From Faecalibacterium sp. CAG:74 (lineage in GTDB: Archaea > Thermoplasmatota > Thermoplasmata > Methanomassiliicoccales > Methanomethylophilaceae): a stretch of DNA of 64,000 nt. The stretch's first letter is position 1. Each line of letters begins with the position of its first letter. Positions 3,062 to 64,000 of the stretch are shown piece after piece. The stretch covers positions 1,820 to 65,819 of the forward strand of contig CAVHHN010000001.1 in NCBI GenBank assembly GCA_963635855.1, given 5' to 3'. The notes beneath the pieces were generated by a model. It saw only the letters and a list, made by a program, of their open reading frames with translations, did not search any database and was not told the origin of the DNA. A program made the translations under genes and the position numbers.

Positions 3062-3329
3062 GGGATTGAAGGAAAGTATATATCAGTGTACTGAGGAACC
3101 CTCAGAATATTGTGTGTTAGAAATATGGATTTATATGGAGACCTATAGAAACTATGTATCTGTGCCCAAGTCCCTGATCTATAATTTTGATAGCAAATCG
3201 ATATTCTGGACCGTCTTTTTGATAAAATAGGTTCCAAGCATGTCTATTCTATGTCTTCACTAATAATATATAATTGATACATGAATAAACAATTATTACA
3301 CTGAAGGTGAGACGATCACAAAGAAATCT

Positions 3330-3899
3330 ATGATATTGATTGTTTCCGTACTGCTGTGTTTATCAGCATATGCTGTAGTAACACACACGGAATCTCTGAA
3401 TGCGGAGCCCGCTAAACTTGGAAGTAGCGAGGTCACATGGGAATTCAACGAAGAGACCGGTACCCTGACCATAAACGGTTCCGGAGCGATCAGGGCAGCC
3501 AATGGTGCATACCCCTGGTCTGATTACAAAGATCGCATAACATCTATCGATATCGAAGGCACGATCACCTCGATCGATGACGGTGTTTTCGAAGATTGCA
3601 CTTCCCTTACATCCATAACGATCCCCGACTCTGTTACAGAACTCGGAACCGATGTGTTTGGCGAGGACATGGTATTTTATGATTCAAATGGTACCACAGT
3701 GCTCGACCCGACCGCCGATGAGCTGGCAGGAGCGACCTTCCAGAAGGTTGATGGAAAATGGGTCAAGCAGATCTCCCCCGCCGATCTGGGAATGGTCGCT
3801 ATCATCATCGCCATACTTGTCATTGCGATAATACCGGTCATCGTTATCATGAGAAGGAACCAGACCGTTCCCTGTGCAAACATAACCTTCCTAAAGTAA
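3330..3899 (+). CDS. Secreted BspA-type leucine-rich-repeat surface protein, C-terminal TM anchor
   Basis: N-terminal signal-like segment, GTLTINGSGAI...PW..Y lead-in, LRR_5-type repeats (FEDCTSLTSITIPDSVTELG), and C-terminal hydrophobic helix plus RRN. Confidence 0.65.
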   Translation: MILIVSVLLCLSAYAVVTHTESLNAEPAKLGSSEVTWEFNEETGTLTINGSGAIRAANGAYPWSDYKDRITSIDIEGTITSIDDGVFEDCTSLTSITIPDSVTELGTDVFGEDMVFYDSNGTTVLDPTADELAGATFQKVDGKWVKQISPADLGMVAIIIAILVIAIIPVIVIMRRNQTVPCANITFLK

Positions 3900-4186
3900 A
3901 AATAACACCTTCAACAAACCCCTCCGCAACTTGAGTGCGAGAAAAGACACACACTCTGCATTTGCAGAGCCTTGTCTTTTCTCGTACAACACAGCACCTT
4001 CATTGAGTTCTTACCATTCTGTGCAGAAGTTAGGGGCATATTCTCACCACCGGACATAAAGAACACACAGATCATTGCTCCGAAGAAAGGCTGTACTTTA
4101 CCAACCAGTTTAATACACTCTACACAATTCTGTAGAATTGCCGGATCCCCGATAAACACTGAGATACCCAACCTGGAGGAGCTGTC

Positions 4187-6460
4187 ATGAAACGTTTGAT
4201 ATTGTTAGTTGTCTCGATAATTGTGTGTACGTCCATGTATATATTTTTAGAAGAATCATCGAAAGCTGAAGCCATTTCGAATACTTCAGGCACCTGGGGG
4301 GACTTGGAGTATAGCTTTGATTCTGCAACTGGGACACTTTCAATAAGCGGTTCTGGAGAGATAGATGATGCGAACTCAAAGGCTCCCTGGAACCAATACA
4401 GAGAAGACGTGCGCTCGATCATAATTGGTGGCGCGATCACGTCCGTTGGCAAGTACTCGTTCATGGAATACGATAACTTAGAAACACTGAGACTCGGATC
4501 TGTCAGCACAATTGAGGACTATGCATTCTATGGATGTTTTTCACTCAAATCGGTGAACATTCCCGACACAGCCACATCTATTGGATTCGGTACTTTTGCC
4601 AGATGTACGGCCCTCACAGAGGTTACATTTGGAAATTCTGTAAACACAATAGATCAAGAGGCCTTCAGAAATTGTACCTCGCTTAAATCCTTGAATATTC
4701 CAAAATCAGTGACCAATATAGGCATGCTTGCATTCTATGGTTGTACATCCCTTACTTCGATCGATGTCGAGGATAACAACCCCAATTATTGGTCAGACAA
4801 AGTTGCACTTTACACCAAAGGTGACGCAATCGAACTGGTCCAATACCCAGCAGCCAACCCATCTACGACATACACAGTACCTGACACAGTATCAACTATT
4901 GGGTACGCTGCATTCAAAGGATGTACATTCCTTAAATGTGTGACCCTCCCAGGATCTATTGTAAAGATCAATAATCATGCATTTCAGAATTGTACTTCAC
5001 TTGAGTCGATATCCTTGCCTGATTCGGTAACGACCATTGGTGAATATGCATACGACAGCTGTTCTTCTCTTAGTTCCATCAATATACCCAGCAAGATCAC
5101 GACCATAAACTGGCACACATTCTATAACTGTACGTCACTCCAATCCATAACTTTGTCTGACTCGATCACATCCATAATGCCATTCGCATTTTGGGGTTGT
5201 ACATCACTTTCAGAGATCGTCTTCGGAAATTCATTACAAAGTGTCGGTTCATACGCATTCTCTTATTGTACCTCCTTGACCGAGGTAACACTCGGTGAAT
5301 CGATAACAAAGTTTGACGGCAGTGCATTCTATTTCTGTATATCTCTGTCATCATTCATTGTTGATCAGAAAAACCCCAATTATTGTTCTGTCGATGGTGT
5401 TCTTTTCAACAAAAAACAAACCGAACTTATCCAGTATCCCTCCAAAAAGACAGACACAAATTATACTGTTCCGAGCACGGTCACAAAGATCTGTGAGGAT
5501 GCTTTTGTAGGGTGTATTTACCTTCAATCCATTGAAGTGAAACAGAATTCCAACTACTGTTCAGATGAGGGTGTATTGTATGATCTGAACAAAACGTGTT
5601 TGATCGCATACCCGAGTGGAAAGACAGATCCTATGTACAGTATGCCTGAAACCTTAGAACGTACCTCTCAGGATTACCCGTTTTATGGAAATACCAATTT
5701 GACCGAAATTGTGGTCTCGGATTCCTTCCAGGACGACTGTGTACCTCAGTTGGGAATGATATCAGCAGGTTGCAAGATCACGATAAATGATACAAATCCG
5801 AATATAAAGGTTGTAGATGAAGTGGTATTCAGTAAAGACGGCGAAACCCTACTACTTTGTACATCAGGAAAAACAGGAGAATACACTATTCCCGAGGGAA
5901 CCAAAAAAATTGAGAAATTCGCATTCGTGTTTGCAGAGAATCTCGTTGCTCTGAACATTGCTGATTCTGTCACAGAGGTCTGCGACAGCGCATTCCAAGG
6001 CAAATGGGCTTTTTCTCCCATTATAGGATGTAAATCTCTATGCAGGATCACATTCGGAAACGGATTAAATACCGTAAGCAAAGACATATCATTCATCGCC
6101 ATGACATTTACATATGAGGGAAAAACCGTCATCGCCCCCACTGATCTGAATGGAAAGACATTCTCTGTTTGCAACGGAACCCTTTCCACAGGGTTCGATC
6201 CCGAAGTCCCCATATCAGCTCATGTTCTGACCGACGTGCCTGGAAAAGCAGCCACCTTCGTTGATGATGGATCTAAAGCACACCAACATTGCACCTTATG
6301 TGGAAAAGATTTCATTGATGGAAAAGAAACTTCCTCAGAAGATCTGGTGATCTCTGCAAAATGTGCTGAACCTGGAACGATATTCGGCCTAGTATCAGCA
6401 ACGATCCTTCTAGTGGTCGGCGTTATTTCTATTTCTATGCTCAGAACGAGAAAAGGCTGA
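4187..6460 (+). CDS. Large BspA-type leucine-rich-repeat surface protein, C-terminal TM anchor
   Basis: 757 aa with a signal peptide and the same GTLSISGSGEI...PW..Y lead-in as the upstream gene. It has more than 15 repeats of the pattern F.gCtsLtsi.iP.sVt.Ig..AF, and a C-terminal TM followed by RTRKG. Confidence 0.8.
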   Translation: MKRLILLVVSIIVCTSMYIFLEESSKAEAISNTSGTWGDLEYSFDSATGTLSISGSGEIDDANSKAPWNQYREDVRSIIIGGAITSVGKYSFMEYDNLETLRLGSVSTIEDYAFYGCFSLKSVNIPDTATSIGFGTFARCTALTEVTFGNSVNTIDQEAFRNCTSLKSLNIPKSVTNIGMLAFYGCTSLTSIDVEDNNPNYWSDKVALYTKGDAIELVQYPAANPSTTYTVPDTVSTIGYAAFKGCTFLKCVTLPGSIVKINNHAFQNCTSLESISLPDSVTTIGEYAYDSCSSLSSINIPSKITTINWHTFYNCTSLQSITLSDSITSIMPFAFWGCTSLSEIVFGNSLQSVGSYAFSYCTSLTEVTLGESITKFDGSAFYFCISLSSFIVDQKNPNYCSVDGVLFNKKQTELIQYPSKKTDTNYTVPSTVTKICEDAFVGCIYLQSIEVKQNSNYCSDEGVLYDLNKTCLIAYPSGKTDPMYSMPETLERTSQDYPFYGNTNLTEIVVSDSFQDDCVPQLGMISAGCKITINDTNPNIKVVDEVVFSKDGETLLLCTSGKTGEYTIPEGTKKIEKFAFVFAENLVALNIADSVTEVCDSAFQGKWAFSPIIGCKSLCRITFGNGLNTVSKDISFIAMTFTYEGKTVIAPTDLNGKTFSVCNGTLSTGFDPEVPISAHVLTDVPGKAATFVDDGSKAHQHCTLCGKDFIDGKETSSEDLVISAKCAEPGTIFGLVSATILLVVGVISISMLRTRKG

Positions 6461-38253: not shown

Positions 38254-39300
38254 ATGTCCAAAGTCATCATGAACGACGGTGCTGGTGGAGATATCATGCA
38301 GGAATTCATCTCCAAACATATCACCGGCCATTTTCCCAAAATGAAAACAGAGGTACCACTTGACGCATTAGATGATTCCGCGGTCGTCGATGATATCGTC
38401 TTCACTATTGATGGACATACTGTCAATCCGTTGTTCTTCCCTGGTGGAGACATTGGGAGGATTGCAGTATCTGGAACAGTTAATGACATTTCGGTCATGG
38501 GGGCCAAACCCGTCGGACTCGGAAGCTCTGTCATCTTAGAAGAAGGGCTCGACTCAGATATCGTTGACAAGGTCATGGAAAGTATGGGTAAGACCTCACT
38601 CGAATGTGGCGTCCCCGTTGTCACAGGTGATACAAAGGTCATGGGTGCGGGTGAACTTGATAAGATGATCGTGACCACTTCTGCGATCGGGATCAGGCCG
38701 GACTACCTCGACCATGATATGGAAGTGGCGAACGGATATCGCAAGGTCGAAAGCCGCTGGTGCGCAGACTCCAATACCCGGCCCGGAGATGCGATTATAG
38801 CATCTGGGTATATGGGAGACCATGGTATCGCATTATTGTCATTCCGGGAAGGATATGGTTTTGAATCCAATGTGAGATCAGATGTGCAGCCACTCAACAA
38901 AATGATCGAAAAAGCTCTTCGCGTCGGAGGTATCGTTGCAATGAAAGATCCAACAAGAGGTGGGATCGCCAATACCCTGAACGAATGGGCTGAAAAATCA
39001 AAGTGTCAGCTCGATATCAATGAGGAAGATATACCGATCAGGGACGGAGTCGAGAACGCCTGCGAACTTCTCGGTATCGAACCGCTCAACATCGGGAACG
39101 AAGGAAAATGTATTATCTCCGTCGTCCCTGAAATGGCGGAAGAGGTCCTCAAAACCCTCAGATCCACTCCTGAAGGAAAGGATGCAGCAATCATTGGAAG
39201 GGCCGTGGACGGACCATCTCGTGTGGTTCTCAGAACAGAGGTTGGGGGAAAAAGGATCCTTGAACCCCCATCTGGTGATCCGGTTCCACGCATCTGTTGA
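38254..39300 (+). CDS. hypE: Hydrogenase maturation carbamoyl dehydratase HypE
   Basis: PurM-like fold pattern and the diagnostic C-terminal PRIC. The start was trimmed to ATG 38254 (MSKVIMNDGAGG). Confidence 0.88.
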   Translation: MSKVIMNDGAGGDIMQEFISKHITGHFPKMKTEVPLDALDDSAVVDDIVFTIDGHTVNPLFFPGGDIGRIAVSGTVNDISVMGAKPVGLGSSVILEEGLDSDIVDKVMESMGKTSLECGVPVVTGDTKVMGAGELDKMIVTTSAIGIRPDYLDHDMEVANGYRKVESRWCADSNTRPGDAIIASGYMGDHGIALLSFREGYGFESNVRSDVQPLNKMIEKALRVGGIVAMKDPTRGGIANTLNEWAEKSKCQLDINEEDIPIRDGVENACELLGIEPLNIGNEGKCIISVVPEMAEEVLKTLRSTPEGKDAAIIGRAVDGPSRVVLRTEVGGKRILEPPSGDPVPRIC

Positions 39301-39309
39301 AACCTTTTC

Positions 39310-39332
39310 CCGGGAATTTCCCGGCATTTTTT
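39310..39332 (+). terminator. Short hairpin plus T6 tract after hypE
   Basis: CCGGG-AATTT-CCCGG followed by CATTTTTT. Confidence 0.45.
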
Positions 39333-39639
39333 GAATTTACGTACCAAATGATTTACCAAGGTAATATAGATCGTTTTGCATCATTCGAATTTCGAAAAAA
39401 ATAGGTATATATACATTAATTTGGATATCTATCTGCGGAGACGCAAATATAAGCAAAGAAATATGCTGGAACACTGCGAGAGATCGTGGATGTTTCAGGA
39501 TTGTCAGTAAAATGACGCTTACCTTTGAATGCGTTTCTGTTCATTAAGATCTCAAATAGCACGTTTGAGATTTTGGTCGCAACAAACCCCTTTCGGCCTA
39601 ATTCGTTTATTACCCGGGGGCCCAAAGCCCCCACATCTT

Positions 39640-39655
39640 CCTTTCTTCTTACCTA
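39640..39655 (+). repeat. Left copy of the direct repeat abutting MITE-like copy L
   Basis: CCTTTCTT(CTT)ACCTA lies 1 nt outside the element end and matches 42162-42174 in the same orientation. Confidence 0.5.
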
Positions 39656-39656
39656 G

Positions 39657-39880
39657 TCCCATTGAAATCATGCCGTCAACACCTGATTTAATTTCAACCT
39701 GATTGAATTCGAAACATTGAACACTGTCACAGTAAACAGGGCACATATCTTCTGTTGTTGTCTAACCTTTCCCTGATTTGTAACTGTTCGGAGTCCCCTC
39801 AAGGATCCAAAATAATGTAATTTGAAAAATGAAAAGAGTGACGACAAGATCAGTTATTGAGAAATGATTTCAATGGGTCG
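39657..39880. mobile_element. MITE-like repeat, copy L (about 224 bp, 14-bp terminal inverted repeats)
   Basis: Ends CCCATTGAAATCAT ... ATGATTTCAATGGG. It aligns along its whole length with the reverse complement of 41937-42160, including a 46-nt perfect core at 39756-39801. It contains no ORF. Confidence 0.6.
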
Positions 39881-40012
39881 GGCACCATAGCATCGGTGAA
39901 TTAGTATAATGAACGTTAATTATTGAGAGAATTACTACAATTGTTGGATACTATGTAGTTATCTTTTTATTTAATAACTTGGTTTTGGATTTATCATCCA
40001 AAGGTTGATAAA

Positions 40013-41872
40013 ATGAATTTGAAAAACAAAAGCGGCATGATTGCCCCCCCCCTGATCTGCCTGATGCTTATCGTTACGGCATTCACAATGGTCGTCAGCG
40101 ATAAGGCAGAAGGTTCGGTAGGTGGCGAACTAAACGACAGTTCAGGTTACTACTATAGCGGTGCGATGATGGAATCCTTATCGAATTCCAGAGGCATCAG
40201 TAGCGATAACTACAAAGTAAATTGGTCCCTGGAAAATTCTATAGGATATGCAATATCCGGTAACTATGCATATGTTGTTACCAGCGACGGCAAGCTCAAC
40301 AAAGTAAGTCTTGATGATGGTACAATCATCAAATCTGTCGAGAGAGGCTCTACCTCCAGTGCTTGGCCTGCAGTGAACGATGAGTTGGTCTTAGATCCAA
40401 TAACTGGTAATGTCTATGATCTCGATCTCAATCAAAAATACCAGATTAATGCTACTTGCGAGTATGGATATTATAATGATGGGCACTGGTATGTTGTTCA
40501 GAGGGACAAAACTTGTAAATGTTTCACAGTCGAGGATGAAGATACTGCTGATGCAAAGAATGTTCAGCAGCCTGTATGGTCCACTACATTTACATTCTTC
40601 ATCGATGCAAATACGATGGCTCTGTCCATTGCTTTTGGTGAAACAACATTATACTACCCAGGAATCGGTGCAAGCGATCAGAATCAGCGCATCATCTACT
40701 GTGTCGACAAATCCACCGGTGAACAGTTGGATACTTTTGAAATGACCGAGATCAGATCCACCTACTGGAACTCTGGATTCATTTCTTATTATGATGGTAC
40801 AGTTTATGTTTCTGCTCATTGGGACACTATGTTCTGGCCTATTGGAGACGGAACCAAGCCTGTATTTGTTCAGATACAGACCAACAGTGACGGTAAATTC
40901 GATCCCAGCACTGTGAAATATACATGCAGTGGTATCGACAATTCATATTCGTCAGCAGTAGTGAAGGTCGGAAACCTTGGATTTGTCCATACTGGAAGCA
41001 ACTTTATCGTTTTTGATCTGAATGATAATATGAAGATTCTTGCTCAGACCCCTGCCGATAAAAAGCTCGCCAAGATCTACAGCAATATCGCGATTGCCTA
41101 CGGAAGCAATGATCTGGTCTATGGGTATGCGATTCCATCAGGTGTACCAACAACTCTTGCAGATGCGGCTGATGGAATTGTTGGTTTTGAATACAGAATA
41201 TCCACAAATGAAATCAAAGCCTTTGAACTCAATGTGGGTGAAACCAAAACTAACACCGCTAACACTATAAAGATCGGTCCAAATGGGGAACTTCTTTTTG
41301 CAAAGAACAACTCAGTTCTTTATTGTATCACACAAGATGTTAAGTCGTACTATGTGAATTTTGATGCTAACGGAGGAAGTGGTGATATGGCCAGAGGCGA
41401 TGTTTCCGGCACGTACACTTTGCCTGCATGTACCTTCACTGCCCCCGAAGGTAAGAAGTTCTTGGGTTGGGCTTATTCTCCGACAGGGGAAGTTATCTCT
41501 GGTACCACCATCAATGTGACCGCTGATGTGACCTTGTATGCCATATGGGGCGATTCCAGTTATTCAATCAGTTTCAATGCCAATGGCGGCTCTGGAACCA
41601 TGGCTAACGTGTCGGTCCTCCCCGGTACCTACTCTTTGCCTGCATGTTCGTTCACTGCCCCTGATGGTAAGAAATTCTTGGGTTGGGCTTATTCTTCGAA
41701 CGGTCCTGTGATATCTGGTACCACCATCAATGTGACATCCGATGTGACCTTGTATGCCATATGGGAAGACAACCACCCTTCGTCATCAAATACGGTTACC
41801 ATAATAATTTGTGCAGTTGTGGTGCTGGCAATTGTTGGTGCTGCATTCCTTATATACAAACACAGACCTTGA
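40013..41872 (+). CDS. Secreted surface protein: N-terminal signal/TM, beta-rich (propeller-like) region, two Listeria/Bacteroides-type repeats, C-terminal TM anchor
   Basis: 619 aa. Two 71-aa repeats of the form F.ANGGSG.M......GTY.LP.C.FTAP.GKKFLGWAYS..G.VISGTTINVT.DVTLYAIW. The C-terminus is VTIIICAVVVLAIVGAAFLIYKHRP. Confidence 0.7.
   Translation: MNLKNKSGMIAPPLICLMLIVTAFTMVVSDKAEGSVGGELNDSSGYYYSGAMMESLSNSRGISSDNYKVNWSLENSIGYAISGNYAYVVTSDGKLNKVSLDDGTIIKSVERGSTSSAWPAVNDELVLDPITGNVYDLDLNQKYQINATCEYGYYNDGHWYVVQRDKTCKCFTVEDEDTADAKNVQQPVWSTTFTFFIDANTMALSIAFGETTLYYPGIGASDQNQRIIYCVDKSTGEQLDTFEMTEIRSTYWNSGFISYYDGTVYVSAHWDTMFWPIGDGTKPVFVQIQTNSDGKFDPSTVKYTCSGIDNSYSSAVVKVGNLGFVHTGSNFIVFDLNDNMKILAQTPADKKLAKIYSNIAIAYGSNDLVYGYAIPSGVPTTLADAADGIVGFEYRISTNEIKAFELNVGETKTNTANTIKIGPNGELLFAKNNSVLYCITQDVKSYYVNFDANGGSGDMARGDVSGTYTLPACTFTAPEGKKFLGWAYSPTGEVISGTTINVTADVTLYAIWGDSSYSISFNANGGSGTMANVSVLPGTYSLPACSFTAPDGKKFLGWAYSSNGPVISGTTINVTSDVTLYAIWEDNHPSSSNTVTIIICAVVVLAIVGAAFLIYKHRP
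41348..41773 (+). repeat. Tandem 213-nt coding repeat (2 copies)
   Basis: Copies at 41348-41560 and 41561-41773 are in frame. Their 3' halves are nearly identical at the DNA level. Confidence 0.85.
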
Positions 41873-41893
41873 TCCGGTTTTACTAAACTTCTC

Positions 41894-41907
41894 CCCCCTT
41901 CTGGGGG
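41894..41907 (+). terminator. GC hairpin after the surface-protein gene
   Basis: CCCCC-TTCT-GGGGG lies 22 nt after the stop. Confidence 0.4.
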
Positions 41908-41936
41908 ACCCTATATATTATAAAGTTTTGAAAACC

Positions 41937-42160
41937 GGCCCCATTGAAACCAGGTCTCAATGACTGATCATAGGGTCGGTCTTTTCATTTTTCAAATTAG
42001 ATCATTTTGAATCCCCTGAGGGGACTCCGAACAGTTACAAATCAGGGAAAGGTTAGACAACAGCAAAAGAAACGTGCACTGTTTACTGTGGTAGCGTTCA
42101 ACGTTGCGAATTCGATCAGATCGAAATAGGGTTGGGTGTTGACAGCATGATTTCGATGGA
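41937..42160. mobile_element. MITE-like repeat, copy R (inverted relative to copy L)
   Basis: Its reverse complement aligns with 39657-39880, with a 46-nt perfect core at 42017-42062. The ends are CCATTGAAACCA ... TGATTTCGATGG. Confidence 0.6.
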
Positions 42161-42161
42161 A

Positions 42162-42174
42162 CCTTTCTTACCTA
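42162..42174 (+). repeat. Right copy of the direct repeat abutting MITE-like copy R
   Basis: CCTTTCTTACCTA lies 1 nt outside the element end and is in direct orientation with 39640-39655. Confidence 0.5.
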
Positions 42175-42179
42175 TAAGG

Positions 42180-42186
42180 TTTATAA
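42180..42186 (+). promoter_or_regulatory. TATA box candidate for the DUF1015 gene (leaderless or short leader)
   Basis: TTTATAA is centred 31 nt upstream of ATG 42214. Confidence 0.4.
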
Positions 42187-42213
42187 CGTGAGTGTAATCC
42201 TCAACCAGATACT

Positions 42214-43404
42214 ATGGTCACATTCCGCCCATTCAAAGGATACAGGCCCAGACTCCAAGCTGGTGAAAAAATAGATGCTCGCATCTCCCCCCCTTATGAT
42301 GTTATCGGAGAAGAGTACCTTAAGCAACTCCAATCCAATGAATTCAATGTAACCAACCTGACCCTTTCTCCAGACGCGGACAAGAGATATACTCACTCAA
42401 GAAAACTCTTGGACAAGATGATAGAAGAAAATTTACTGATGCCTGACGAACCTTCGTTCTATCTCTATGATCAAAAGTTCACCTCTGATGGAAAGGAATA
42501 TTCAAGAAGAGGACTGGTAGGGATCTTGAAGACCGAAGACTACAGCGAAGGCCACATCATCCCGCACGAAGAGACCTTTTCCAAAGTAAAAGCAGACCGG
42601 CTCAACCTCCTCAGGGACATGGAGACCCACCTCGAATCCATCTTCGGCATCTATCCAGGGCTCGGAGAGGAACTGGATAAGAAGGTCGATAACGAAGCTA
42701 GACTATGCTACAGATATGTCGACAGCGATGGTGTCGAACACAGGTATAGCCGGATCTCTGACCCTGCACTCTGCGAAGCGATCTCAGAGAAACTTAAAGA
42801 TCAGAACATGCTCATCGCAGATGGTCACCACAGGTATGAGACCGCTCTTAACTATGCCAAGGAAAATCCCGATAATGAGGCGAAACAGCACGTCCTGTGC
42901 ACAATGGTCGCCTCTACTGACACCGGACTTGTGATCTGGCCTACCCACAGATTGATCGATGCTGAAGACATCGGGGAGACCAGTGCTATCAAGAAAATCG
43001 AGAAGAATATGGTCACTCAAGAGGTTTCTGAGGAACAGATGGAAGCTGAGCTCGGGAAGCACCTGTTCGGTATGATGTTCAAATCAGGTCGGTGTTTCCT
43101 CATTGACAACCCCCAGGAGCAGGATGATGTCATGTACCAGCTTGACACCTATTCCGCCCAGCAGAACATTCTCTACGGCATATACAAATCCGATGAAGGT
43201 AAATCCAAAGTATCTTACGATGCAGAACTGCCATCGGTCAAAAAGGCCATGGAAGAAAAGAAACATGATGCTGCGATCATACTCAACACCCCCAGCCTCA
43301 AAACTATCTGGGACCTGGCGGCCATTGGAAAGAGAATGCCCAAGAAGACCACCTATTTCTTCCCCAAGATCTGGTCTGGCTGGGTCTTCTACAAAATGAA
43401 CTGA
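42214..43404 (+). CDS. DUF1015-family protein
   Basis: The N-terminus FRPFKGYRP.......ISPPYDVI and the later ADGHHRYETAL match the DUF1015 pattern as I recall it. Confidence 0.65.
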   Translation: MVTFRPFKGYRPRLQAGEKIDARISPPYDVIGEEYLKQLQSNEFNVTNLTLSPDADKRYTHSRKLLDKMIEENLLMPDEPSFYLYDQKFTSDGKEYSRRGLVGILKTEDYSEGHIIPHEETFSKVKADRLNLLRDMETHLESIFGIYPGLGEELDKKVDNEARLCYRYVDSDGVEHRYSRISDPALCEAISEKLKDQNMLIADGHHRYETALNYAKENPDNEAKQHVLCTMVASTDTGLVIWPTHRLIDAEDIGETSAIKKIEKNMVTQEVSEEQMEAELGKHLFGMMFKSGRCFLIDNPQEQDDVMYQLDTYSAQQNILYGIYKSDEGKSKVSYDAELPSVKKAMEEKKHDAAIILNTPSLKTIWDLAAIGKRMPKKTTYFFPKIWSGWVFYKMN

Positions 43405-45806: not shown

Positions 45807-45883
45807 TGGCGGGCTTGCCGCGATTCGAACGCGGGTCTGGGGCTCCGCAAGCCCTCAGGATATCCAAGCTACCCCACAAGCCC
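45807..45883 (-). tRNA. tRNA-Arg (anticodon GCG) with encoded CCA
   Basis: The reverse complement folds with acceptor GGGCTTG/CAAGCCC, anticodon loop TTGCGGA, T-loop GTTCGAATC, and G-CCA. Confidence 0.8.
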
Positions 45884-57567: not shown

Positions 57568-58344
57568 TCAGCGCCTTGCTTTGGGCTTACCGTAATTCTT
57601 GACAGGCTTACGGAATACCCAGACAGCAAATACGACCAAGATGACCAGAACCACTACTATCAGGTAGATCAAGTAGTTGTAGTCTCCCTGATGGTAATAG
57701 AACTCATATTCGACACCCAGACCTTCGATGGTGTAAGCATGATCTCCTGCATCGAGGCAGTAGGTATGTCTGCCAGCGGTCAGGTTTTTGTCGAAATATT
57801 TGTAGGTCACGGTCTTGCTTCCATCGGCTTCAATGGAGATCTTCTGTTCACTGTCGTCGATCTTCTTACCGTCGACATAGAAGTACACCGTGGTACCGTT
57901 GATAGCAAGACTACCGGTGTTCTTGAGTGTGACACTAAGGGTGACAGGCTCCCTTGCTTCAAGGGTCTTCGAAACGGTGAATACCTTGTTCGGAAGATCA
58001 CTGGTGCTACTATACCTCTCTGTAAAGGTGACTTCAAGAGTGTAGGTCCCTGCGGTCGAGGGAAGTGTGACGGTGATCTCCTCAGAGAACTCCGTTTCGG
58101 TAGTACTTCCTGCGGTCCTTGACAGTGCACTTGACTGTGAAACACCTTTGGAGTTGACCAATTTAGCGGTGTAGGACATGTTACTGAAGATGTCATGGTC
58201 CTGCTCATAGAACTTTATGGTAGCAGTGATCTTTCCACCAGTTGCCTCGACCGTGTCCGAAAGAAGAATATCTCCTGAACTGACAGAATCTGCAGAGGTG
58301 TCGTCAGTGATTACGAACACCGTTGCAAAGGATGCGAAGACCAT
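57568..58344 (-). CDS. Surface protein with a CARDB-like beta-sandwich domain and a C-terminal TM anchor
   Basis: LSVTLKNTGSLAINGTTVYFYVDGKK...GSKTVTYKY is CARDB-like. The C-terminal helix is followed by RKPVKNYGKPKARR. It lies 26 nt downstream of aglB on the same strand. Confidence 0.6.
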   Translation of the reverse strand: MVFASFATVFVITDDTSADSVSSGDILLSDTVEATGGKITATIKFYEQDHDIFSNMSYTAKLVNSKGVSQSSALSRTAGSTTETEFSEEITVTLPSTAGTYTLEVTFTERYSSTSDLPNKVFTVSKTLEAREPVTLSVTLKNTGSLAINGTTVYFYVDGKKIDDSEQKISIEADGSKTVTYKYFDKNLTAGRHTYCLDAGDHAYTIEGLGVEYEFYYHQGDYNYLIYLIVVVLVILVVFAVWVFRKPVKNYGKPKARR

Positions 58345-58370: not shown

Positions 58371-61300
58371 TCAGTTTTTGCGTGAGAACACCCCCCTCTT
58401 CATGCCTCCCCAGATAGTGACAAGGAGAAGCAGAATGACAACAACAGTAAGGATCCAGAATCCATTAGGCAGGGCCTTTACCTTGTTGTCAGATCCAGCA
58501 CCAGAAGCAGAGTGTTCTGAGCCATCGACTTTAGCAATGGATGGATCAAGGTCTACAGATTTGGAATAGTCCCCAGTAATCGACAATGATATTGAAGGCA
58601 CACCAGCGTTTGAATCACCTGATTTGTGGATCAACATCACGTACAGAGTAGTGTCACCGAGACCGTTGAGATTGAAAGAATCTCCGTTATTCTTGATCAA
58701 CAATCCACTTGAATCTACCAACATCACATACCATTTGTCAGCATCGGTCTTCGGAGTCGCAGTGATCTTGACCGTCTTGTAAACAGAGTTATTGTTGGAG
58801 AAACGCATCGCGTACTTGTAGGAATATCCATCGGCAGAGTCAGATACGTCGCTATCTCCGGCAAATGCGACAGAGATATCTCCGGTGGCACCAGAGCCCT
58901 CGGCATGGTCTTTATCAACAACCACCTTTCCGATGGAGGTTCCATCAATAGATGTGACCTCAAGGGTCAGATCCGAATTACCTGCACCGATGGTGAACTG
59001 GTTGTAATATCCGTGGACTTCGACCGTGTTCTCCTTTGTGTCAGAACCAGATATGGTTATGGAATACATCTTATCCAGGGTCAATGCACCACTGCCCGTC
59101 ACGAAATAAGTGACTGGGTAATCATGAGTGTTCTTGACCCTAAGGACAACTGTAGCATCTCCATTGTTCAGCGTTGCGTCATCGACGGTGACAGTATCAG
59201 AAGTTAGCTCAGATGTCGTCGTAGTGGAAAGGTTGAATGTCATATCCTCATCGACAGTGAACGCATCGATCTTCGAAATATCATAGACAGTGTAGGTATA
59301 GGTATCATCGGTAGCTTTGCCCTCAAGTGTCATACTAGACACTTTGAAACCTTTTGGTAGGTCAACAGAGTATACTCCTTTACTGACCTCGACCTGCACC
59401 TGTATATCTTGTGACTCATCACAGATGAGTAGGTGACCATCGACCTCTGCACCGACATATCCCTTAAGGGTCTTGCTTTCAACAAAAGTGTAATCCTTGA
59501 AGGTGTCATTCGATTCAAAGGTCTTAGAGTACACCACTTTTCCATCAGAATCGGTCACTTTGAAATAATACTCGTAATCGATATCTCCATCATACTGAAG
59601 ATAATAGTTGATGACACATTTGTCAGACTTATCTTCAACACTGACGTAGGCACCCACTTTTTCATCTTTCTCGATGGGAACAACTGTAACGGTATCTTTC
59701 TCATTCGCTTTGGTCAAAGTTACTTTGAAACAGGCGACAGCAGTGAGAGAGATCTCTTTGGTATCGATGTAGATGTTGATGGTCTGTGAATCGATGAACT
59801 GCCCATTGAGAACAGAATCGTCTTCGTAGCCGTTCTTGTAAACGGTCACAACGTAACGCCCAGGTATAAGATAATCGATCTCATCACCGATCTTCTCATC
59901 GGTTATTGTGTATTTGTTGATCTGTGTGATCTTACCATTCACAATGGTCACAAGCAGATCGTAATCAGTACCTGCATATGCATCGAACACAAGCTTTCCG
60001 TCGAATTTGGTCTTGAGTTCATCATCCTTGATGAAATCGATAGCATCCTTGGAAAGAGGCTTCACAGTATTCTTCGTTTCATCATACTTTGTATCGATAG
60101 AGAAGGTCTCAAGGGTCGTTGTACTGGATACAGAGGTTGACTCCTTCGACTGGAACACGAGTCCAGAACCAGATTCTGTCTCGACGAAGTTGAAAATACC
60201 AGTACCGCTCTTACCATAGGCCTTGTCCAGAGGATCGAATGCCACATTGTAACTGACAATGGAATCCTTAGGCACATACAAGGTGTACTTTCCATCAGAG
60301 CCGGTCACAGCAGGAATAGTGTAGGTCGTTTCACCGACCTTCACTGTGAATGTCAAAGGAATGAATGCAAGCCCCACAGTACTGGGCACCATATTTGTCT
60401 TAAAGTTCACAGTAGCGCTGGCGGCATATGCGACATCCATCTTGACTTCAATATCAGATGTATCACCACTGATCTCTTTGTTGAAGTATACTGCCTGACT
60501 ATTGTTGGTGGCGTAAATGGTGTAAGTTCCATTGGGAACATGTCCACTGAACTTTCCATCAGTATCGGCCGCGAACAGGTATACTCCAGTGGTGGTACCG
60601 GTACCGATGAACGCAACGGTTCCTGAAAGGGCGGTTCCTGAATTGTCCTTAAGAACACCACTGACCGCTGAACCGGTACCAGTATATTCTGTCAGGTATC
60701 CGTCAAGGGTCTTCGGAAGATAAACTGTGGTACCTTTGGCAACGGTACTGTATCCGAGTGCTGACCAGATACTTCCAGCAGAGGACTCTTTACTCGATGC
60801 AGCATACACCGAAAGTGTCGCACTGGCAGTGCTGGTGGATTTGTCGAGAGAGATGGTCTTGGCCTGTACGGACACATAGTCGTTTTTGACATACAGAGTG
60901 TACTTCCCAACAGGCAGATAGACGTCCTCGGATCCTGTGATCTCAAGATCGAACGTAAATCCGTTGGAACCTGCAAAGGTGACCTGCACAGGGTCGTCCA
61001 TCTGCTTTCCATACATATCGTTGACGGTGATGGTGGCCTTGGCCGCACCGAGGCTGACAGACAGATAGTCAAGACCGTCGATGATACTGACCGAGCTGAC
61101 AGTGTTCAGAAGGGATCCATCCTTCCCGTATACATTGATGGTGTACTTACCAGGAATGAGGTTCTCAACAGTGAATTTTCCGTCAGTTACGGTCACGGTA
61201 TTGACCACTCCGTCGCTACCAACGAAACTAAGTGTCACATCAGACGTCACGTAGAGATTGTTGTTGGAGTCAACTATTTGACCTGTCTGGGTCACGGGTT

Positions 61301-64000
61301 TGAGCACGAAATTGTAATCGACGATTTCAGAAGAATCGGTCTCGATCGTATTCACGCAAACTCCATCCCTAAAGGTCTCAGAACCTACGAAATACTTCAC
61401 AAGATACTTCTGCTTCTCCAAAGGTACTTCAGGATCATAGCCAGGAACGGTGATGTTGAACTTTCCCTCACTATCTGTGTAAGTAATACAGCGCGGGATG
61501 TATGAAATGGAGCTTTTAGTGTCGTAATTGATCATTTCATAGACGACTACCTTCACGTCGGAAACAGGCTTTGCTGAGTCGCCGGTTCCGGTAGTTATCT
61601 GACCGGACTTGACGGTCTTGGAATGATCATACTCATACATGATGACCGAGGAAAGATAGTTAATATATCCTCCATTGGCGTTCTGTTCAGCGATCGCCTC
61701 GTAAGCATCCATATCCTTCCATTCAGCGTTTTCATTCGCCCTGTACATAACATGCCAATATGCGATCTTGAAGTTATCCAAGCCATATCCAGGCTGGGCC
61801 TTGACGGTTCCATCGGAGTTGGCAAGCTTGGAAAGCAGGTCGAGGGAGCTGTTCAGTCCGAAATCGGAGGGGGTGACACCCATAAGTGCGTTCCAAAGGA
61901 AGGTCTGATACATGGCATCCTGGTAGGTGTAGTACAACTGAGCGTAGTATCCATACTGGTAGTAGAGACGGGTGGTGGCTGTAACATTGTACAAGCTGGA
62001 CGGACTGCCGTCACTGTCAAGGGCGTAATCATCAAAGTAGGCCATTGTCGAAGCATAGGTTCCGTCATTGGCATAAAGTGGGATCATCGATCCGTCAACT
62101 TCGATGTAACCGATCTTGTTTCCGGTCTCACCACAGACCAGATCATAAAGATCGGCGAGTTTTGTACTGTCGAGCTGAGCGGTCAGATAGTGCACACCGG
62201 CAAGGTACGGCACTGTCTCAGAGCTAAGCTGGGTTTTGTATTTCACGAAATCGTCAGAGTACTGAGAGATGTAATCCCTGGCATAGCTTTCATCGCTGAG
62301 GATCTTGACGAGTTCGGACACACCGGCCTTCTCGAACTGATCTGCATACTTGATGGCATCGTTCTCAACGAGACGGATGATCAGAGAAGCAAGAGCGCCA
62401 GCATTACCTGTGGACAAGTAGACGGAGGCCATTGCAGAGGTTCCGCCACCGTTCGAACTGGTAACGGTCGAGAATCTGCCGATCTGAGTGGCAGCATCGG
62501 AATAACCGTACCAGGTGACGAGGGCACCGTTTTTGTCCAGACCGGCATAGTGGTTCCAAGTACTGGTGGTGAGAGTGGAGTTCGAAGTGTTGATGGTGTA
62601 ACCGAGACCACCGAAGTAGTTCCCGTGTTCATTGTTGGTAGGAGTGGATGCGTCGACCGCGTAGACTGCAGTAGGTACTGCAACGAGGAAGACGGTCACG
62701 AGGAGTGTGACGAGGGGGAAGAAGTTGAGAGCTTTCCTGGCACCGGCCTTGAATCCGTTGCCCCTGAGAGACTTGAGGTAAGACCTCATGTCCACCTTGC
62801 GAATGAGGCTCACGAGGACATATCCGGACCCGACAGCGAAACCTGCGCCTGCAACAAGTGCATACTCGGTGCTGAACCATCCGACGAAGAAACTGGCAAG
62901 TAACCAGATCATCGTGAACATGTAAAGAAGACTTCTGGAGTGGTCACGGAATTTGTAAGCCATCCAAACCCCAGCGAAGAGGGGGAGCCAGACGGTCAAC
63001 CAACCATAATAGGATGCCATGGTGGAGATGCTGGTCCTGCTGAACTGCTCAGCAAGGGAGTGTGCAAGAGCACCGGTGACAGGGAGACTTCCAGACATAA
63101 CGGCGCTGGATACGCTGGGTACTGCGACCGCAAGTATGACGGCAACAGCAAAGATTATGGCCGCGGTGAGCGGGATGGAAAGTACCCAGGGTTTCTTCTC
63201 GAGAGCGAGGAAGATAAGGCTGTATACAACAACAAGGACCGCAAGGATACATCCTCCCTCGAAGATCTGATTCCACAGACCAGTGGGGATGTAGTAAACG
63301 GCTCCGACGACGATACCGACCAGAAGGGAAACAAGGGGAATACCGATAAGGACCCCGAGATCCTTTCCACCGACACGCTGGATAACGGATGCGAGAAGAA
63401 CCATTATGGCCATGGTCATAACAGCTGCCCAGAATCCGGTCCAGGTCAGAACGATGAATGCGAATGAAATTGCTGCAGCAAAAGTGAATTTCCTGACAGC
63501 GGAAACTTTGAAAACGGAACCGATACCGGTCGCGTTGAGCTCATCGGCCTTGCTGTATGCAGATGCGACGAAGTAGACGAACCAGGCCACGATGAAGCAG
63601 AGCATTGGATACTCTGCACCATTCGAGAAGGCCGTGGTCATGATCGAGGCCGCGAAAACCGCATAGAACAAAGCACTGACAAGGGAGATCACCTCATCCT
63701 TGAAGAGCCTCTTTGCGATCAAGTAGACCGGAACACAGGTCAATGCACCGAAAATGGGTGCGGACCAAGCAAGGGTACCAGCTGCCGCAACAGGAGTGTC
63801 GATCCCGAAACAGGTGACCAACCAAGCAATAGCGGCCATAAAGTAATCGAACAGTGGGCCGGAGATACTGGCGGTTCCGAATGGGTAGTTCATCGACATC
63901 TCGTTAGCAGGGTTGTAGGTACCTGCAAGGATCTCCGTAATGATACGAAGGTGGCTGGATGCGCTTGTACCGCCAGACAGGGCATAATTATCCCCCGCGG
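58371..64000 (-). CDS. aglB: Giant AglB/STT3-type oligosaccharyltransferase-like protein; the 5' end lies beyond the window
   Basis: The frame stays open upstream of ATG 63899 to the window edge (..SSHLRIITEILAGTYNPANEMSMNYPFG..), matching the STT3 YH.R....NYP.G N-terminal region. It has about 13 TM segments, then a soluble domain, then a long series of beta-sandwich repeats with recurring G(K/T)Y(T/V)(I/L).V motifs. A C-terminal TM helix is followed by KRGVFSRKN. Confidence 0.7.
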   Translation of the reverse strand, partial: AGDNYALSGGTSASSHLRIITEILAGTYNPANEMSMNYPFGTASISGPLFDYFMAAIAWLVTCFGIDTPVAAAGTLAWSAPIFGALTCVPVYLIAKRLFKDEVISLVSALFYAVFAASIMTTAFSNGAEYPMLCFIVAWFVYFVASAYSKADELNATGIGSVFKVSAVRKFTFAAAISFAFIVLTWTGFWAAVMTMAIMVLLASVIQRVGGKDLGVLIGIPLVSLLVGIVVGAVYYIPTGLWNQIFEGGCILAVLVVVYSLIFLALEKKPWVLSIPLTAAIIFAVAVILAVAVPSVSSAVMSGSLPVTGALAHSLAEQFSRTSISTMASYYGWLTVWLPLFAGVWMAYKFRDHSRSLLYMFTMIWLLASFFVGWFSTEYALVAGAGFAVGSGYVLVSLIRKVDMRSYLKSLRGNGFKAGARKALNFFPLVTLLVTVFLVAVPTAVYAVDASTPTNNEHGNYFGGLGYTINTSNSTLTTSTWNHYAGLDKNGALVTWYGYSDAATQIGRFSTVTSSNGGGTSAMASVYLSTGNAGALASLIIRLVENDAIKYADQFEKAGVSELVKILSDESYARDYISQYSDDFVKYKTQLSSETVPYLAGVHYLTAQLDSTKLADLYDLVCGETGNKIGYIEVDGSMIPLYANDGTYASTMAYFDDYALDSDGSPSSLYNVTATTRLYYQYGYYAQLYYTYQDAMYQTFLWNALMGVTPSDFGLNSSLDLLSKLANSDGTVKAQPGYGLDNFKIAYWHVMYRANENAEWKDMDAYEAIAEQNANGGYINYLSSVIMYEYDHSKTVKSGQITTGTGDSAKPVSDVKVVVYEMINYDTKSSISYIPRCITYTDSEGKFNITVPGYDPEVPLEKQKYLVKYFVGSETFRDGVCVNTIETDSSEIVDYNFVLKPVTQTGQIVDSNNNLYVTSDVTLSFVGSDGVVNTVTVTDGKFTVENLIPGKYTINVYGKDGSLLNTVSSVSIIDGLDYLSVSLGAAKATITVNDMYGKQMDDPVQVTFAGSNGFTFDLEITGSEDVYLPVGKYTLYVKNDYVSVQAKTISLDKSTSTASATLSVYAASSKESSAGSIWSALGYSTVAKGTTVYLPKTLDGYLTEYTGTGSAVSGVLKDNSGTALSGTVAFIGTGTTTGVYLFAADTDGKFSGHVPNGTYTIYATNNSQAVYFNKEISGDTSDIEVKMDVAYAASATVNFKTNMVPSTVGLAFIPLTFTVKVGETTYTIPAVTGSDGKYTLYVPKDSIVSYNVAFDPLDKAYGKSGTGIFNFVETESGSGLVFQSKESTSVSSTTTLETFSIDTKYDETKNTVKPLSKDAIDFIKDDELKTKFDGKLVFDAYAGTDYDLLVTIVNGKITQINKYTITDEKIGDEIDYLIPGRYVVTVYKNGYEDDSVLNGQFIDSQTINIYIDTKEISLTAVACFKVTLTKANEKDTVTVVPIEKDEKVGAYVSVEDKSDKCVINYYLQYDGDIDYEYYFKVTDSDGKVVYSKTFESNDTFKDYTFVESKTLKGYVGAEVDGHLLICDESQDIQVQVEVSKGVYSVDLPKGFKVSSMTLEGKATDDTYTYTVYDISKIDAFTVDEDMTFNLSTTTTSELTSDTVTVDDATLNNGDATVVLRVKNTHDYPVTYFVTGSGALTLDKMYSITISGSDTKENTVEVHGYYNQFTIGAGNSDLTLEVTSIDGTSIGKVVVDKDHAEGSGATGDISVAFAGDSDVSDSADGYSYKYAMRFSNNNSVYKTVKITATPKTDADKWYVMLVDSSGLLIKNNGDSFNLNGLGDTTLYVMLIHKSGDSNAGVPSISLSITGDYSKSVDLDPSIAKVDGSEHSASGAGSDNKVKALPNGFWILTVVVILLLLVTIWGGMKRGVFSRKN

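Follow-up and report, generated by a model that had tools for sequence, protein, structure and literature searches.

A surface-protein gene between inverted MITE-like arms: a probable transposase-less composite cassette in a gut Methanomethylophilaceae archaeon

Features of the hypE-DUF1015 locus

The window (the whole 64-kb stretch of DNA analyzed here) comes from a Methanomethylophilaceae archaeon, a gut methanogen. Downstream of hypE, between a putative small-RNA gene and the DUF1015 promoter (start codon ATG at 42214), it holds a surface-protein gene that lies between two inverted, noncoding arms, and direct repeats border the arms on the outside (Table 1). The 3′ pyrimidine tract of the putative small-RNA gene is the sequence that served as the insertion target. 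Rfam searches at the gathering threshold returned tRNAs only, and at an E value of ≤10 they returned nothing meaningful in the interval from 39250 to 42250.

Table 1. Features at the hypE-DUF1015 locus, in window coordinates
Feature	Position	Strand	Remark
Conserved structured noncoding block, putative small-RNA gene	39436..39650	+	Context feature
Left target-site duplication copy, CCTTTCTTCTTACCTA	39640..39655	.	16 nt
Arm L, MITE-like unit, left terminal inverted repeat of cassette	39656..39882	+	227 bp, noncoding
Outer terminal inverted repeat of arm L, CCCATTGAAATCAT	39658..39671	+	
46-nt perfect core, arm L	39756..39801	+	
Inner terminal inverted repeat of arm L, ATGATTTCAATGGG on + strand	39864..39877	-	
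Upstream region of cargo gene	39883..40012	+	100% identity to L020
TATA-like box upstream of cargo gene, TTTTTATTTAATAA	39964-39977		
Shine-Dalgarno-like GGTTGAT upstream of cargo gene	40003-40009		
Cargo gene, 619-aa surface protein	40013..41872	+	Pfam PF09479, E 2.9e-17
3′ region of cargo	41873..41934	+	Kept in L021; 100% identity to L020
Terminator-like hairpin CCCCCC-TTCT-GGGGG in cargo 3′ region	about 41893-41907		
Arm R, inverted copy of arm L	41935..42161	-	
46-nt perfect core, arm R	42017..42062	-	
Right target-site duplication copy, CCTTTCTTACCTA	42162..42174	.	13 nt
TATA box TTTATAA of DUF1015 gene, left intact by insertion	42179..42185	+	Same in window, L003, L004, and L005, directly 3′ of target sequence

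Arm L and the reverse complement of arm R (41935-42162) aligned by blastn at 83.4% identity over 223 nt (E value, 1.8e-63), and the two form the sole inverted repeat in the window that is longer than about 40 nt or more than 75% identical. Base 42162 is ambiguous, since it may either close the terminal inverted repeat or open the duplication. The core was invariant in all four arm sequences compared, i.e., the two of the window and the two of the conspecific genome L020; arm L is 98.7% identical between these genomes, and the L020 arms are collinear with those of the window on either side of the core and are not chimeric. The terminal inverted repeats of arm L are a perfect 14-nt pair. A 12-nt end motif, CCATYGAAAYCA, occurs with zero mismatches four times in the 64 kb, and these occurrences are the four arm ends. 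The arms carry stop codons in all frames and share no open frame, and a collection of 5.8 billion protein clusters contained no counterpart of two arm ORFs of 59 and 64 aa; given the lack of a conserved frame and of protein counterparts, we rejected the idea that the arms are coding remnants. They were likewise rejected as structured RNAs, since, apart from the stem formed by the terminal inverted repeats, they folded no better than shuffled sequences (z scores of −1.7, −2.9, and +0.2). Each arm is built like a MITE: it is small (within the limit of roughly 600 bp), lacks coding capacity, and bears terminal inverted repeats of its own.

Between the arms, only the 619-aa ORF has family or homologue support. 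In its product, a predicted membrane-anchored surface protein, a propeller and two Flg_new repeats are combined with an N-terminal helix and a C-terminal transmembrane helix. The propeller (residues about 55 to 445) is predicted to be eight-bladed and of the beta type: in an AlphaFold2 model (pLDDT of 79), Foldseek matched it to the BamB/YxaL propellers with an E value of 1e-12. A sequence search of the protein against solved structures gave zero matches. From its sequence, the cargo appears to be a full transcription unit, with the putative promoter, ribosome-binding site, and terminator all located between the arms. A paralogous cargo locus, L021, has other neighbors and no arms; its positions 2906 to 4716 are 76% identical to the window from about 39904 to about 41930, so that the homology takes in the cargo upstream region from about 39904 as well as the 3′ region. 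At five homologous loci elsewhere (L021 and L036 to L039), no arms were found beside the cargo-gene homologue. The cargo gene has a GC content of 43.8% and a GC3 of 44.0%, compared to means of 48.5% and 54.8% (standard deviation, 5.7) for the genes of the window. A second surface-protein gene, at 4187-6460, is as AT rich as the cargo gene.

A preliminary description of this DNA had reported inverted arms of ~224 bp with a 46-nt perfect core, terminal inverted repeats belonging to each arm, direct repeats outside them, and a 619-aa adhesin-like protein as the sole enclosed gene, richer in AT than its neighbors. All of these features were recovered, the core and the direct repeats at the same positions, and the identity of the arms is higher than the “three quarters” given there.

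A single insertion event with a target-site duplication

On the outside, each arm borders to within one base on a direct repeat, CCTTTCTTCTTACCTA on the left and CCTTTCTTACCTA on the right. The right copy equals the left copy less one CTT from the CTTCTT run, and we attribute the difference between 16 and 13 nt to the slippage of one CTT in this run. At the position of the right duplication, L020 reads CCCTTCTTACCTA.

We compared the locus in 17 related species, of which the sister species L003 is the closest (about 88% nucleotide identity to the window in the flanking genes and 20% difference in neutral intergenic DNA). In all 17, hypE adjoins the DUF1015 gene at a distance of 92 to 505 nt, and neither the arms nor the cargo gene is present at this site in any of them. 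The empty site of L003 reads ...CCCCCAACTATTAT-CCTTTCTTTTTACCTA-TAAGGTTTATAAC, and the filled site of the window reads ...CCCCCACATCTT-CCTTTCTTCTTACCTA-[cassette]-CCTTTCTTACCTA-TAAGGTTTATAAC. Because L003 has the 16-mer once, at the exact position occupied by the cassette in the window, the direct repeats are a true target-site duplication of 13 to 16 bp, and the entire 2,506 bp arrived as one unit. The insertion duplicated about 16 bp of the target; the left copy today measures 16 nt, and the right copy measures 13 nt. This duplication is confined to the outer ends of the whole unit, in which two element copies flank the cargo; the inner arm ends have no matching direct repeats. An alternative model with an 8-bp duplication (CTTACCTA) was rejected, as it needs a chance match of the adjacent CCTTT on both sides. 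Duplications of 13 to 16 bp exceed those that most insertion-sequence families, as classified in ISfinder, are known to produce, and a length of 16 bp suggests an enzyme outside the common families.

Two conspecific genomes carry the insertion. L020 (GCA_963656955.1) has it at the identical site, with both ends and in the same orientation as the window; L041 (GCA_963650645.1) has arm L and part of the gene at the identical site, on a contig that stops within the gene. The flanks of both are 98 to 99% identical to those of the window. Logan contigs from one metagenome assembly also match the window arrangement over the parts that they cover. All of these occurrences represent one locus and show a single insertion event in a recent ancestor of this Methanomethylophilaceae species. 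The preliminary description had offered a mobile cassette, inserted as a unit with a target-site duplication, as one of two readings, and had suggested a search for empty sites in which hypE, one repeat copy, and the DUF1015 gene follow one another. The L003 site, in which the 16-mer is followed by TAAGGTTTATAAC, has this structure and supports that reading, as does the absence of the arms and the gene from the 17 relatives. The reservation expressed there, that the direct repeats might belong to a longer conserved intergenic sequence, was answered in the opposite sense by the single 16-mer of L003.

The divergence between arm L and arm R (17%) is near that of neutral intergenic DNA between the window and L003. 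Because of this similarity, the history of the arms is ambiguous, and what was inserted may have carried either two different copies or a single duplicated end.

Searches for further copies and a mobility enzyme

Beyond arms L and R, the window contains no copies of the arm, and in about 300 kb of related loci none was found outside this locus. A 24-mer of the core had no match in 185,579 species-representative genomes (GTDB), the core and terminal patterns had none in IMG/VR, and the arms had none in phage and plasmid collections. Searching JGI metagenomes with a terminal 20-mer yielded 14 matches, all of them attributable to chance, with extensions that never went past 20 to 24 nt. Because no second site was found, mobility is shown for a single event. 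One Logan contig, SRR13434599_87858, ends at window position 39685, exactly 30 nt into arm L. This end hints that an arm terminus is present in another context in the sample, by way of a break in the k=31 assembly graph; a variant at position 39686 could also have caused it. The Logan contigs break in three stretches of the window, 39656-39686, 39930-39961, and 41970-42001.

The preliminary description stated that no transposase or recombinase is present in the window, and our Pfam analysis agrees: among 48 nonoverlapping ORFs of at least 90 aa, none matched a transposase, a recombinase, Cas1, or PolB (5 of the 48 had zero Pfam matches). Neither the window nor the collections searched yielded a transposase or insertion sequence whose ends match. 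Since neither another arm copy nor a cognate transposase came to light, a “MITE family” is unproven, and the earlier term “MITE-like” is justified in part, by the anatomy of each arm; multicopy status and descent from a parent insertion sequence would complete it. An IS110-family transposase gene lies about 1.6 kb upstream of the paralogue at L021. To our knowledge, IS110 elements have neither terminal inverted repeats nor duplications of this kind, and for this reason, and because L021 has no arms, we rejected a relationship between this transposase and the arms.

Interpretation and comparison with known elements

The reading that we favor, with a probability of roughly 0.75, is that 39656-42161 is a 2,506-bp nonautonomous transposon in which two diverged, inverted MITE-like units surround one surface-protein transcription unit. 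Under this model, two 227-bp units would earlier have inserted to the left and right of the gene at a donor locus. A transposase supplied in trans would then have recognized the two outermost CCATYGAAATCATGCYGTCAACACC ends and made an unusually long staggered cut in the target, and everything between these ends would have moved, as in two-MITE composite transposons. The host would have gained one extra gene for an adhesin-like surface protein, with both neighbors left undisturbed.

Composites of this type have been described in bacteria: 439-bp MITE-integron-MITE units with outer duplications are found in Acinetobacter, a class 1 integron of Enterobacter cloacae lies between 288-bp IMU units, which have been shown experimentally to transpose, and Tn3-derived miniature inverted-repeat elements (TIMEs) form composites in Pseudomonas (PMC3575428, PMC4133298). 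As in those composites, the cargo lies between two copies of a small noncoding element, each of which has terminal inverted repeats of its own; no transposase is encoded inside, the duplication is found at the outer ends of the unit only, and a single insertion interrupts the target. The cassette differs from them in that its host is archaeal, it carries a surface-protein gene instead of a module for resistance or replication, its arms are only 83% identical, it is known from one insertion site, and no parent transposase family is assigned to it. Its duplication is also longer, at about 16 bp compared to 5 to 6 bp in TIME elements (PMC4133298). MITEs have been described in archaea, namely, SM1 to SM4 of Sulfolobus and elements of Halobacterium and Haloquadratum (PMC10969869). 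The arms resemble these in being small and noncoding, in having terminal inverted repeats, and in residing in an archaeon; however, those MITEs are multicopy and usually solitary, whereas the arms are known in two copies and act as the ends of a gene-carrying unit. A further relevant concept is that of mobile insertion cassettes (MICs) and transporter insertion sequences, named in PMC3129680. The cassette shares with these the terminal inverted and direct repeats around a passenger that has no role in transposition, and mobilization in trans is presumed. MICs such as MIC231 of the Bacillus cereus group have short terminal inverted repeats that clearly derive from a named insertion sequence; the ends of the cassette, in contrast, are 227-bp units with subterminal repeats and without an assigned parent insertion sequence. 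The cassette is thus an archaeal addition to a kind of element known in bacteria and, as seen here, a single event of a type that is well documented there.

The length of the duplication also brings casposons to mind, and it is conceivable, although improbable, that the cassette is a nonautonomous derivative of a casposon or of some other element with a long-stagger integrase and that a Cas1-type casposase is encoded elsewhere in the genome. Casposons have terminal inverted repeats of 25 to 602 nt and duplications of 1 to 27 nt with a median of 15 (PMC4046053). Those of Methanosarcina mazei generate 14-bp duplications whose 3′ part is AT rich (PMC4779613), and MetLum-C1, a family 2 casposon of the euryarchaeon Methanomassiliicoccus luminyensis, is listed with a 17-bp duplication and an intergenic target (supplement). 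The cassette resembles these elements in its long duplication (13 to 16 bp, next to about 14 to 17 bp expected of a casposon), its 227-nt terminal inverted repeats, its integration at an intergenic site or RNA-gene 3′ end, and a host of the same archaeal order as that of MetLum-C1; its terminal inverted repeat and duplication may moreover overlap by one base, as they do in many casposons. However, the cassette and the window lack Cas1 and PolB, and the ends, GTCCCATTGAAATCATGC, are unrelated in sequence to the family 2 casposon ends GGGGTAGTAGTTATCGG, GGGTAATAGTTATCCC, and GGAGGGGGATATATA (supplement). At 2.5 kb, the cassette is also small next to the 9 to 20 kb of the casposons tabulated in the supplement. 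Subterminal inverted repeats such as those within the arms are a usual trait of MITEs that descend from insertion sequences, and in the literature on casposons we found no mention of nonautonomous derivatives. There is a small chance that the cassette is the first recognized nonautonomous passenger of a casposase (Cas1-solo) or of another integrase that staggers its cuts in archaeal targets by about 16 bp. If it were, gut methanogens would be shuffling adhesin-like surface genes by means of machinery related to CRISPR adaptation.

The direct repeats are long for a transposase, and the site is the 3′ terminus of a putative RNA gene, a classic integrase target. Both could also point to site-specific entry through a 13- to 16-bp att core at the small-RNA 3′ end; the enzyme would be a tyrosine or serine integrase provided in trans, the repeats would be attL and attR, and the arms would be incidental. 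We consider this unlikely. The arms start within one base of the repeats and present one motif at all four ends, which is the signature of transposase ends and not of att arms. Neither the cassette nor the window contains an integrase gene, and we know of no class of integrase-less integrative elements of 2.5 kb.

The other reading in the preliminary description, an invertible segment in which recombination between the arms flips the surface-protein gene and causes phase variation, found no support and is very improbable. Inverted repeats of 227 bp with a 46-nt perfect core could sustain homologous recombination, and gene conversion between the arms may have left the perfect core behind. The promoter, however, is part of the segment and would travel with the gene, so that inversion would not switch expression; with the ribosome-binding site and terminator also inside, neither orientation couples the gene to an outside promoter or uncouples it from one. 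The orientation is identical in the window and L020, with L041 and the Logan contigs in agreement over the parts covered, there is no invertase nearby, and the empty site shows that the repeats came together with the gene. As for two independent MITE insertions flanking a surface-protein gene already resident at the site, the MITE anatomy of each arm taken alone would allow for them, but this most improbable of the readings is already contradicted by the empty site, by the lack of the gene at the site in 17 of 17 relatives, by a sole duplication located at the outer ends of the complete unit, and by inner ends without matching direct repeats.

The locus, with its filled site, empty site, and duplication, is a clean and datable case in which a small transposase-less element, as we read it, delivered an adhesin-like gene along with its own putative promoter and terminator. 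If further copies of the arms exist, they would define an archaeal system of gene-carrying MITEs and indicate its transposase. In host-associated Methanomassiliicoccales, adhesin-like proteins with Flg_new repeats form large and variable repertoires (PMC10673518, PMC9723798). The cargo gene itself varies between strains: dS is raised 5- to 20-fold in codons 60 to 420, and dN/dS is near 0.2. Because dS itself is raised and dN/dS is this low, we rejected diversifying selection as the source of the divergence in favor of recombination.

An insertion between hypE and the DUF1015 gene

Searching with the DUF1015 protein against one genome per GTDB species, we obtained 17 loci, all of which (17/17) showed the archaeal hypE-DUF1015 synteny, with labels that were mostly Methanomethylophilaceae or Methanomassiliicoccales. 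In the window, the gene order is inositol monophosphatase, phosphoribosyltransferase, tRNA-Arg, hypE, cassette, DUF1015, tRNA-Thr, and NFACT. The arms and the 619-aa gene were absent from the hypE-DUF1015 locus in 17/17 relatives, in which hypE and DUF1015 lie 92 to 505 nt apart. L003, the locus of the closest relative (88% nucleotide identity in the flanking genes), could be aligned with both window flanks, base for base. The empty site in L003 reads ...GGGGGGCCCACAGCCCCCAACTATTAT-CCTTTCTTTTTACCTA-TAAGGTTTATAACGAG..., and the filled site in the window reads ...GGGGGCCCAAAGCCCCCACATCTT-CCTTTCTTCTTACCTA-[39656-42161]-CCTTTCTTACCTA-TAAGGTTTATAACGTG.... Since the 16-mer occurs once in the empty site and twice, once at each outer end, in the filled site, it is a true target-site duplication. 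The preliminary description had considered that the direct repeats might belong to a longer conserved intergenic sequence; the opposite was found, as that sequence is conserved but has a single copy of the repeat. Its proposal of a mobile cassette inserted as a unit is supported by this pair of sites, which shows one insertion event with an ~16-bp duplication and terminal inverted repeats abutting the duplication.

Features of the cassette, its cargo, and the surrounding locus (window coordinates unless residues are given)
Feature	Position	Strand or orientation	Remark
hypE-like AIR synthase-family protein	38254-39300		just before cassette
TATA-like box of noncoding block	39405-39414		GTATATATAC
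Noncoding block	39436-39650	+	between hypE and insertion site
Long hairpin of block	39475-39581
GC hairpin of block	39616-39631
Left duplication copy	39640-39655	direct	CCTTTCTTCTTACCTA, directly outside arm L
Arm L	39656-39882	+	core 39756-39801
TATA-like box of cargo gene	39964-39977		TTTTTATTTAATAA
Cargo gene	40013-41872	+
Cargo protein, N-terminal hydrophobic helix	residues 13-28
Cargo protein, eight-bladed beta-propeller	residues about 55-445
Cargo protein, two Flg_new (Listeria-Bacteroides) repeats
Cargo protein, C-terminal transmembrane helix	residues 593-616
144-nt tandem duplication	41406-41549 / 41622-41765
Arm R	41935-42161	-	core 42017-42062
Right duplication copy	42162-42174	direct	CCTTTCTTACCTA, directly outside arm R
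DUF1015 TATA box	42179-42185
DUF1015 gene	42214-43404		just after cassette
tRNA-Arg (GCG)	45807-45883	-

The right duplication copy lacks one CTT of the CTTCTT run, likewise in the conspecific genome L020, most simply through later slippage. The single base G 39656 / C 42162 may belong to the terminal inverted repeat or to the duplication. The TATA box of DUF1015, ~30 nt before the ATG and immediately 3' of the right copy, is intact.

The cassette was found at the same locus in three further assemblies. L020 (GCA_963656955.1) has the same insertion, duplication, and orientation, with flanks 98 to 99% identical and arm L 98.7% identical to those of the window; its arm R is broken by a run of ten Ns (L020:11940-11960), a gap that stems from scaffolding at this repeat. 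L041 (GCA_963650645.1) shows 99.4% identity to the window across 13.9 kb; the contig terminates within the cargo gene, at window position 41475, in the first copy of the 144-nt tandem duplication. Logan contigs of sample SRR13434599 are identical to the window. Among loci without the cassette, L003 (CAVIXW010000034.1) and L005 (CAVGRR010000003.1; hypE protein 96% and DUF1015 protein 92% identical to those of the window) are both syntenic with the archaeal locus. The MAGs that contain these contigs are labelled Acutalibacteraceae and Eggerthellaceae bacteria; the contigs are probably mis-binned archaeal sequence.

The arms and how the cassette may have moved

The arms, core, terminal repeats, and direct repeats noted earlier were confirmed. 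Arm L aligned with the reverse complement of 41935-42162 at 83.4% identity over 223 nt, with no large gaps (blastn E value of 1.8e-63 within the window), and this pair is the sole inverted repeat in the 64 kb of more than ~40 nt or more than 75% identity. A perfect 14-nt inverted repeat lies at arm L's own two ends, and CCATYGAAAYCA (12 nt, zero mismatches) has exactly 4 occurrences in the window, namely, the four ends of both arms. The arms contain stop codons in every frame, no open frame is conserved between them, their folding is no better than in shuffled controls except for the stem of their own terminal inverted repeats, and they match no Rfam family. If the 17% divergence were uniform, the 46-nt perfect core would have a chance of ~3% (our calculation); constraint or gene conversion may lie behind it.

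This anatomy fits the earlier designation as MITE-like, but the copy number so far does not. Using exact 20- to 25-mers or BLAST-level similarity, and covering this genome by the 64-kb window alone, we found no further arm copies in GTDB representatives, IMG/VR, JGI metagenomes, phage/plasmid collections, ~300 kb of related loci, or called proteins. The 15-kb Logan contig over hypE (L040/L042) stops at 39685, having entered arm L by exactly 30 nt. With the k of 31 used for Logan graphs, a stop there is expected if the first 31-mer of the arm is preceded by two different k-mers in SRR13434599; the same break would also arise from a variant at position 39686. The adhesin-like-protein contig L001 spans 39931-42000, and both of its breaks are unexplained by the two known arms; the start of contig L002 at 42032, inside the shared core, is explained by them. 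The breaks at 39685, 39931, and 42000 are only suggestive of additional sequences in SRR13434599 having 31-mers in common with the arms or the stretch immediately interior to arm L.

No transposase was found in the cassette or elsewhere in the 64-kb window. We infer that an enzyme acting in trans would have gripped the outermost end on either side and mobilised the whole stretch in between; the same logic has been demonstrated in bacterial composites, i.e., MITE-integron-MITE, IMU, and TIME, a Tn3-derived miniature element (PMC3575428, PMC4133298). Given that both arms have inverted ends of their own, a three-step history would be simplest: a 227-bp MITE-like unit would have inserted twice at a donor locus, once on each side of the gene, the outer ends of the two copies would then have been used jointly, and the composite would have inserted at the present site. 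Arm L and arm R diverge by 17%, similar to the 20% by which this species and L003 differ in the adjacent intergenic DNA. The duplication copies show 0 substitutions in 13 aligned bases (~9% likely at 17% divergence, by our calculation), which mildly favours arms that already differed at insertion. Functionally, the element resembles a MITE-flanked composite transposon or mobile insertion cassette, and it adds a new example of this kind from an archaeon.

Only the long duplication is unusual in this cassette; at 13 to 16 bp, it exceeds that of most insertion-sequence families in the ISfinder family table. Movement by a casposon-type enzyme is a low-probability lead: the duplication length falls within the casposon range (median of 15 bp, with terminal inverted repeats of 25 to 602 nt [PMC4046053]; 14 bp from Methanosarcina mazei casposons [PMC4779613]), and MetLum-C1 of Methanomassiliicoccus luminyensis has a 17-bp duplication at an intergenic site in the published casposon listing, but the family-2 casposon ends GGGGTAGTAGTTATCGG, GGGTAATAGTTATCCC, and GGAGGGGGATATATA are unrelated to the cassette end GTCCCATTGAAATCATGC, and the window contains no Cas1 or PolB. 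The other suggestion of the preliminary description, a phase-variation switch, is not supported, with the promoter lying within the segment, no recombinase nearby, and every assembly in one orientation as far as it extends. On both flanks of the core, the window and L020 have the same arm L versus arm R differences; thus, no inversion separates these genomes, and arm divergence predates their split. Homologous inversion across the core now and then is physically possible but would have no obvious regulatory effect; neither neighbour depends on segment orientation, DUF1015 having its own TATA box.

The cargo gene and its alleles

Nearly everything between the arms (~39904 to ~41930) is 70 to 76% identical to L021:2906-4716, a locus from another metagenome (SRR19415674) that has no arms and has other neighbours (IS110 transposase, tubulin-family protein, and tRNA synthetase). 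Common to both are a TATA-like box, a Shine-Dalgarno-like GGTTGAT, the ORF, and a C6/G5 terminator hairpin. As all of these lie within the L021-homologous part, the cargo is a complete transcription unit belonging to a family of paralogous genes. The IS110-family transposase gene at L021:371-1396 precedes the arm-less paralogue by ~1.6 kb.

Pfam, an AlphaFold2 model (mean pLDDT of 79), and Foldseek gave the protein architecture listed in the table; the model matched BamB and YxaL (Foldseek E value of about 1e-12, target TM-score of about 0.7), and a putative surface, adhesin-like protein is a fair description of it. The two Flg_new repeats correspond to the 144-nt tandem duplication (86% identity, 216-nt spacing). 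GC content and GC3 of the cargo gene are 43.8% and 44.0%, versus window gene means of 48.5% and 54.8% (standard deviation, 5.7). Further putative surface-protein genes lie at 3330-6460, 57568-58344, and 58371-63899 and encode BspA-type LRR_5 proteins, a CARDB-domain protein, and a 1,842-aa ORF with a CarboxypepD_reg domain; one BspA-type LRR_5 gene, at 42% GC, is as AT-rich as the cargo gene. No inverted repeats were found around these other genes in the window.

Between the window and L020 (L020:10001-11857), the propeller part (40190-41270, codons about 60 to 420) showed a dS of 0.19 to 0.69, about 8 to 15% nucleotide differences, and a dN/dS near 0.2, compared with a dS of 0.02 to 0.08 in the flanking genes, whereas the first 60 codons, the Flg_new/anchor part, the promoter, and the terminator were 99 to 100% identical. 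From these comparisons, recombination that replaced the allele, rather than selection on point mutations, looks like the source of the propeller divergence. L041 has the allele of the window.

A conserved block beside the target site

Upstream of the insertion lies a conserved structured block, preceded by a TATA-like box and with a conserved start, GGAG(A/G)CGCA. It is noncoding, because relatives differ by frameshifting indels. In its long hairpin, 90% of cells were paired, and compensatory changes occurred in 15/34 predicted pairs of the block across six genomes; 0/500 shuffles matched this, with slid controls at 29 to 45%. A GC hairpin follows, and then a pyrimidine tract that is the target of the cassette. 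The block had no Rfam match at an E value of ≤10 and no counterpart in relatives with a short hypE-DUF1015 spacer; it probably represents a small RNA not yet described. Farther downstream, ARAGORN called the tRNA-Arg (GCG) listed in the table, which the Rfam tRNA model did not report at the gathering threshold.
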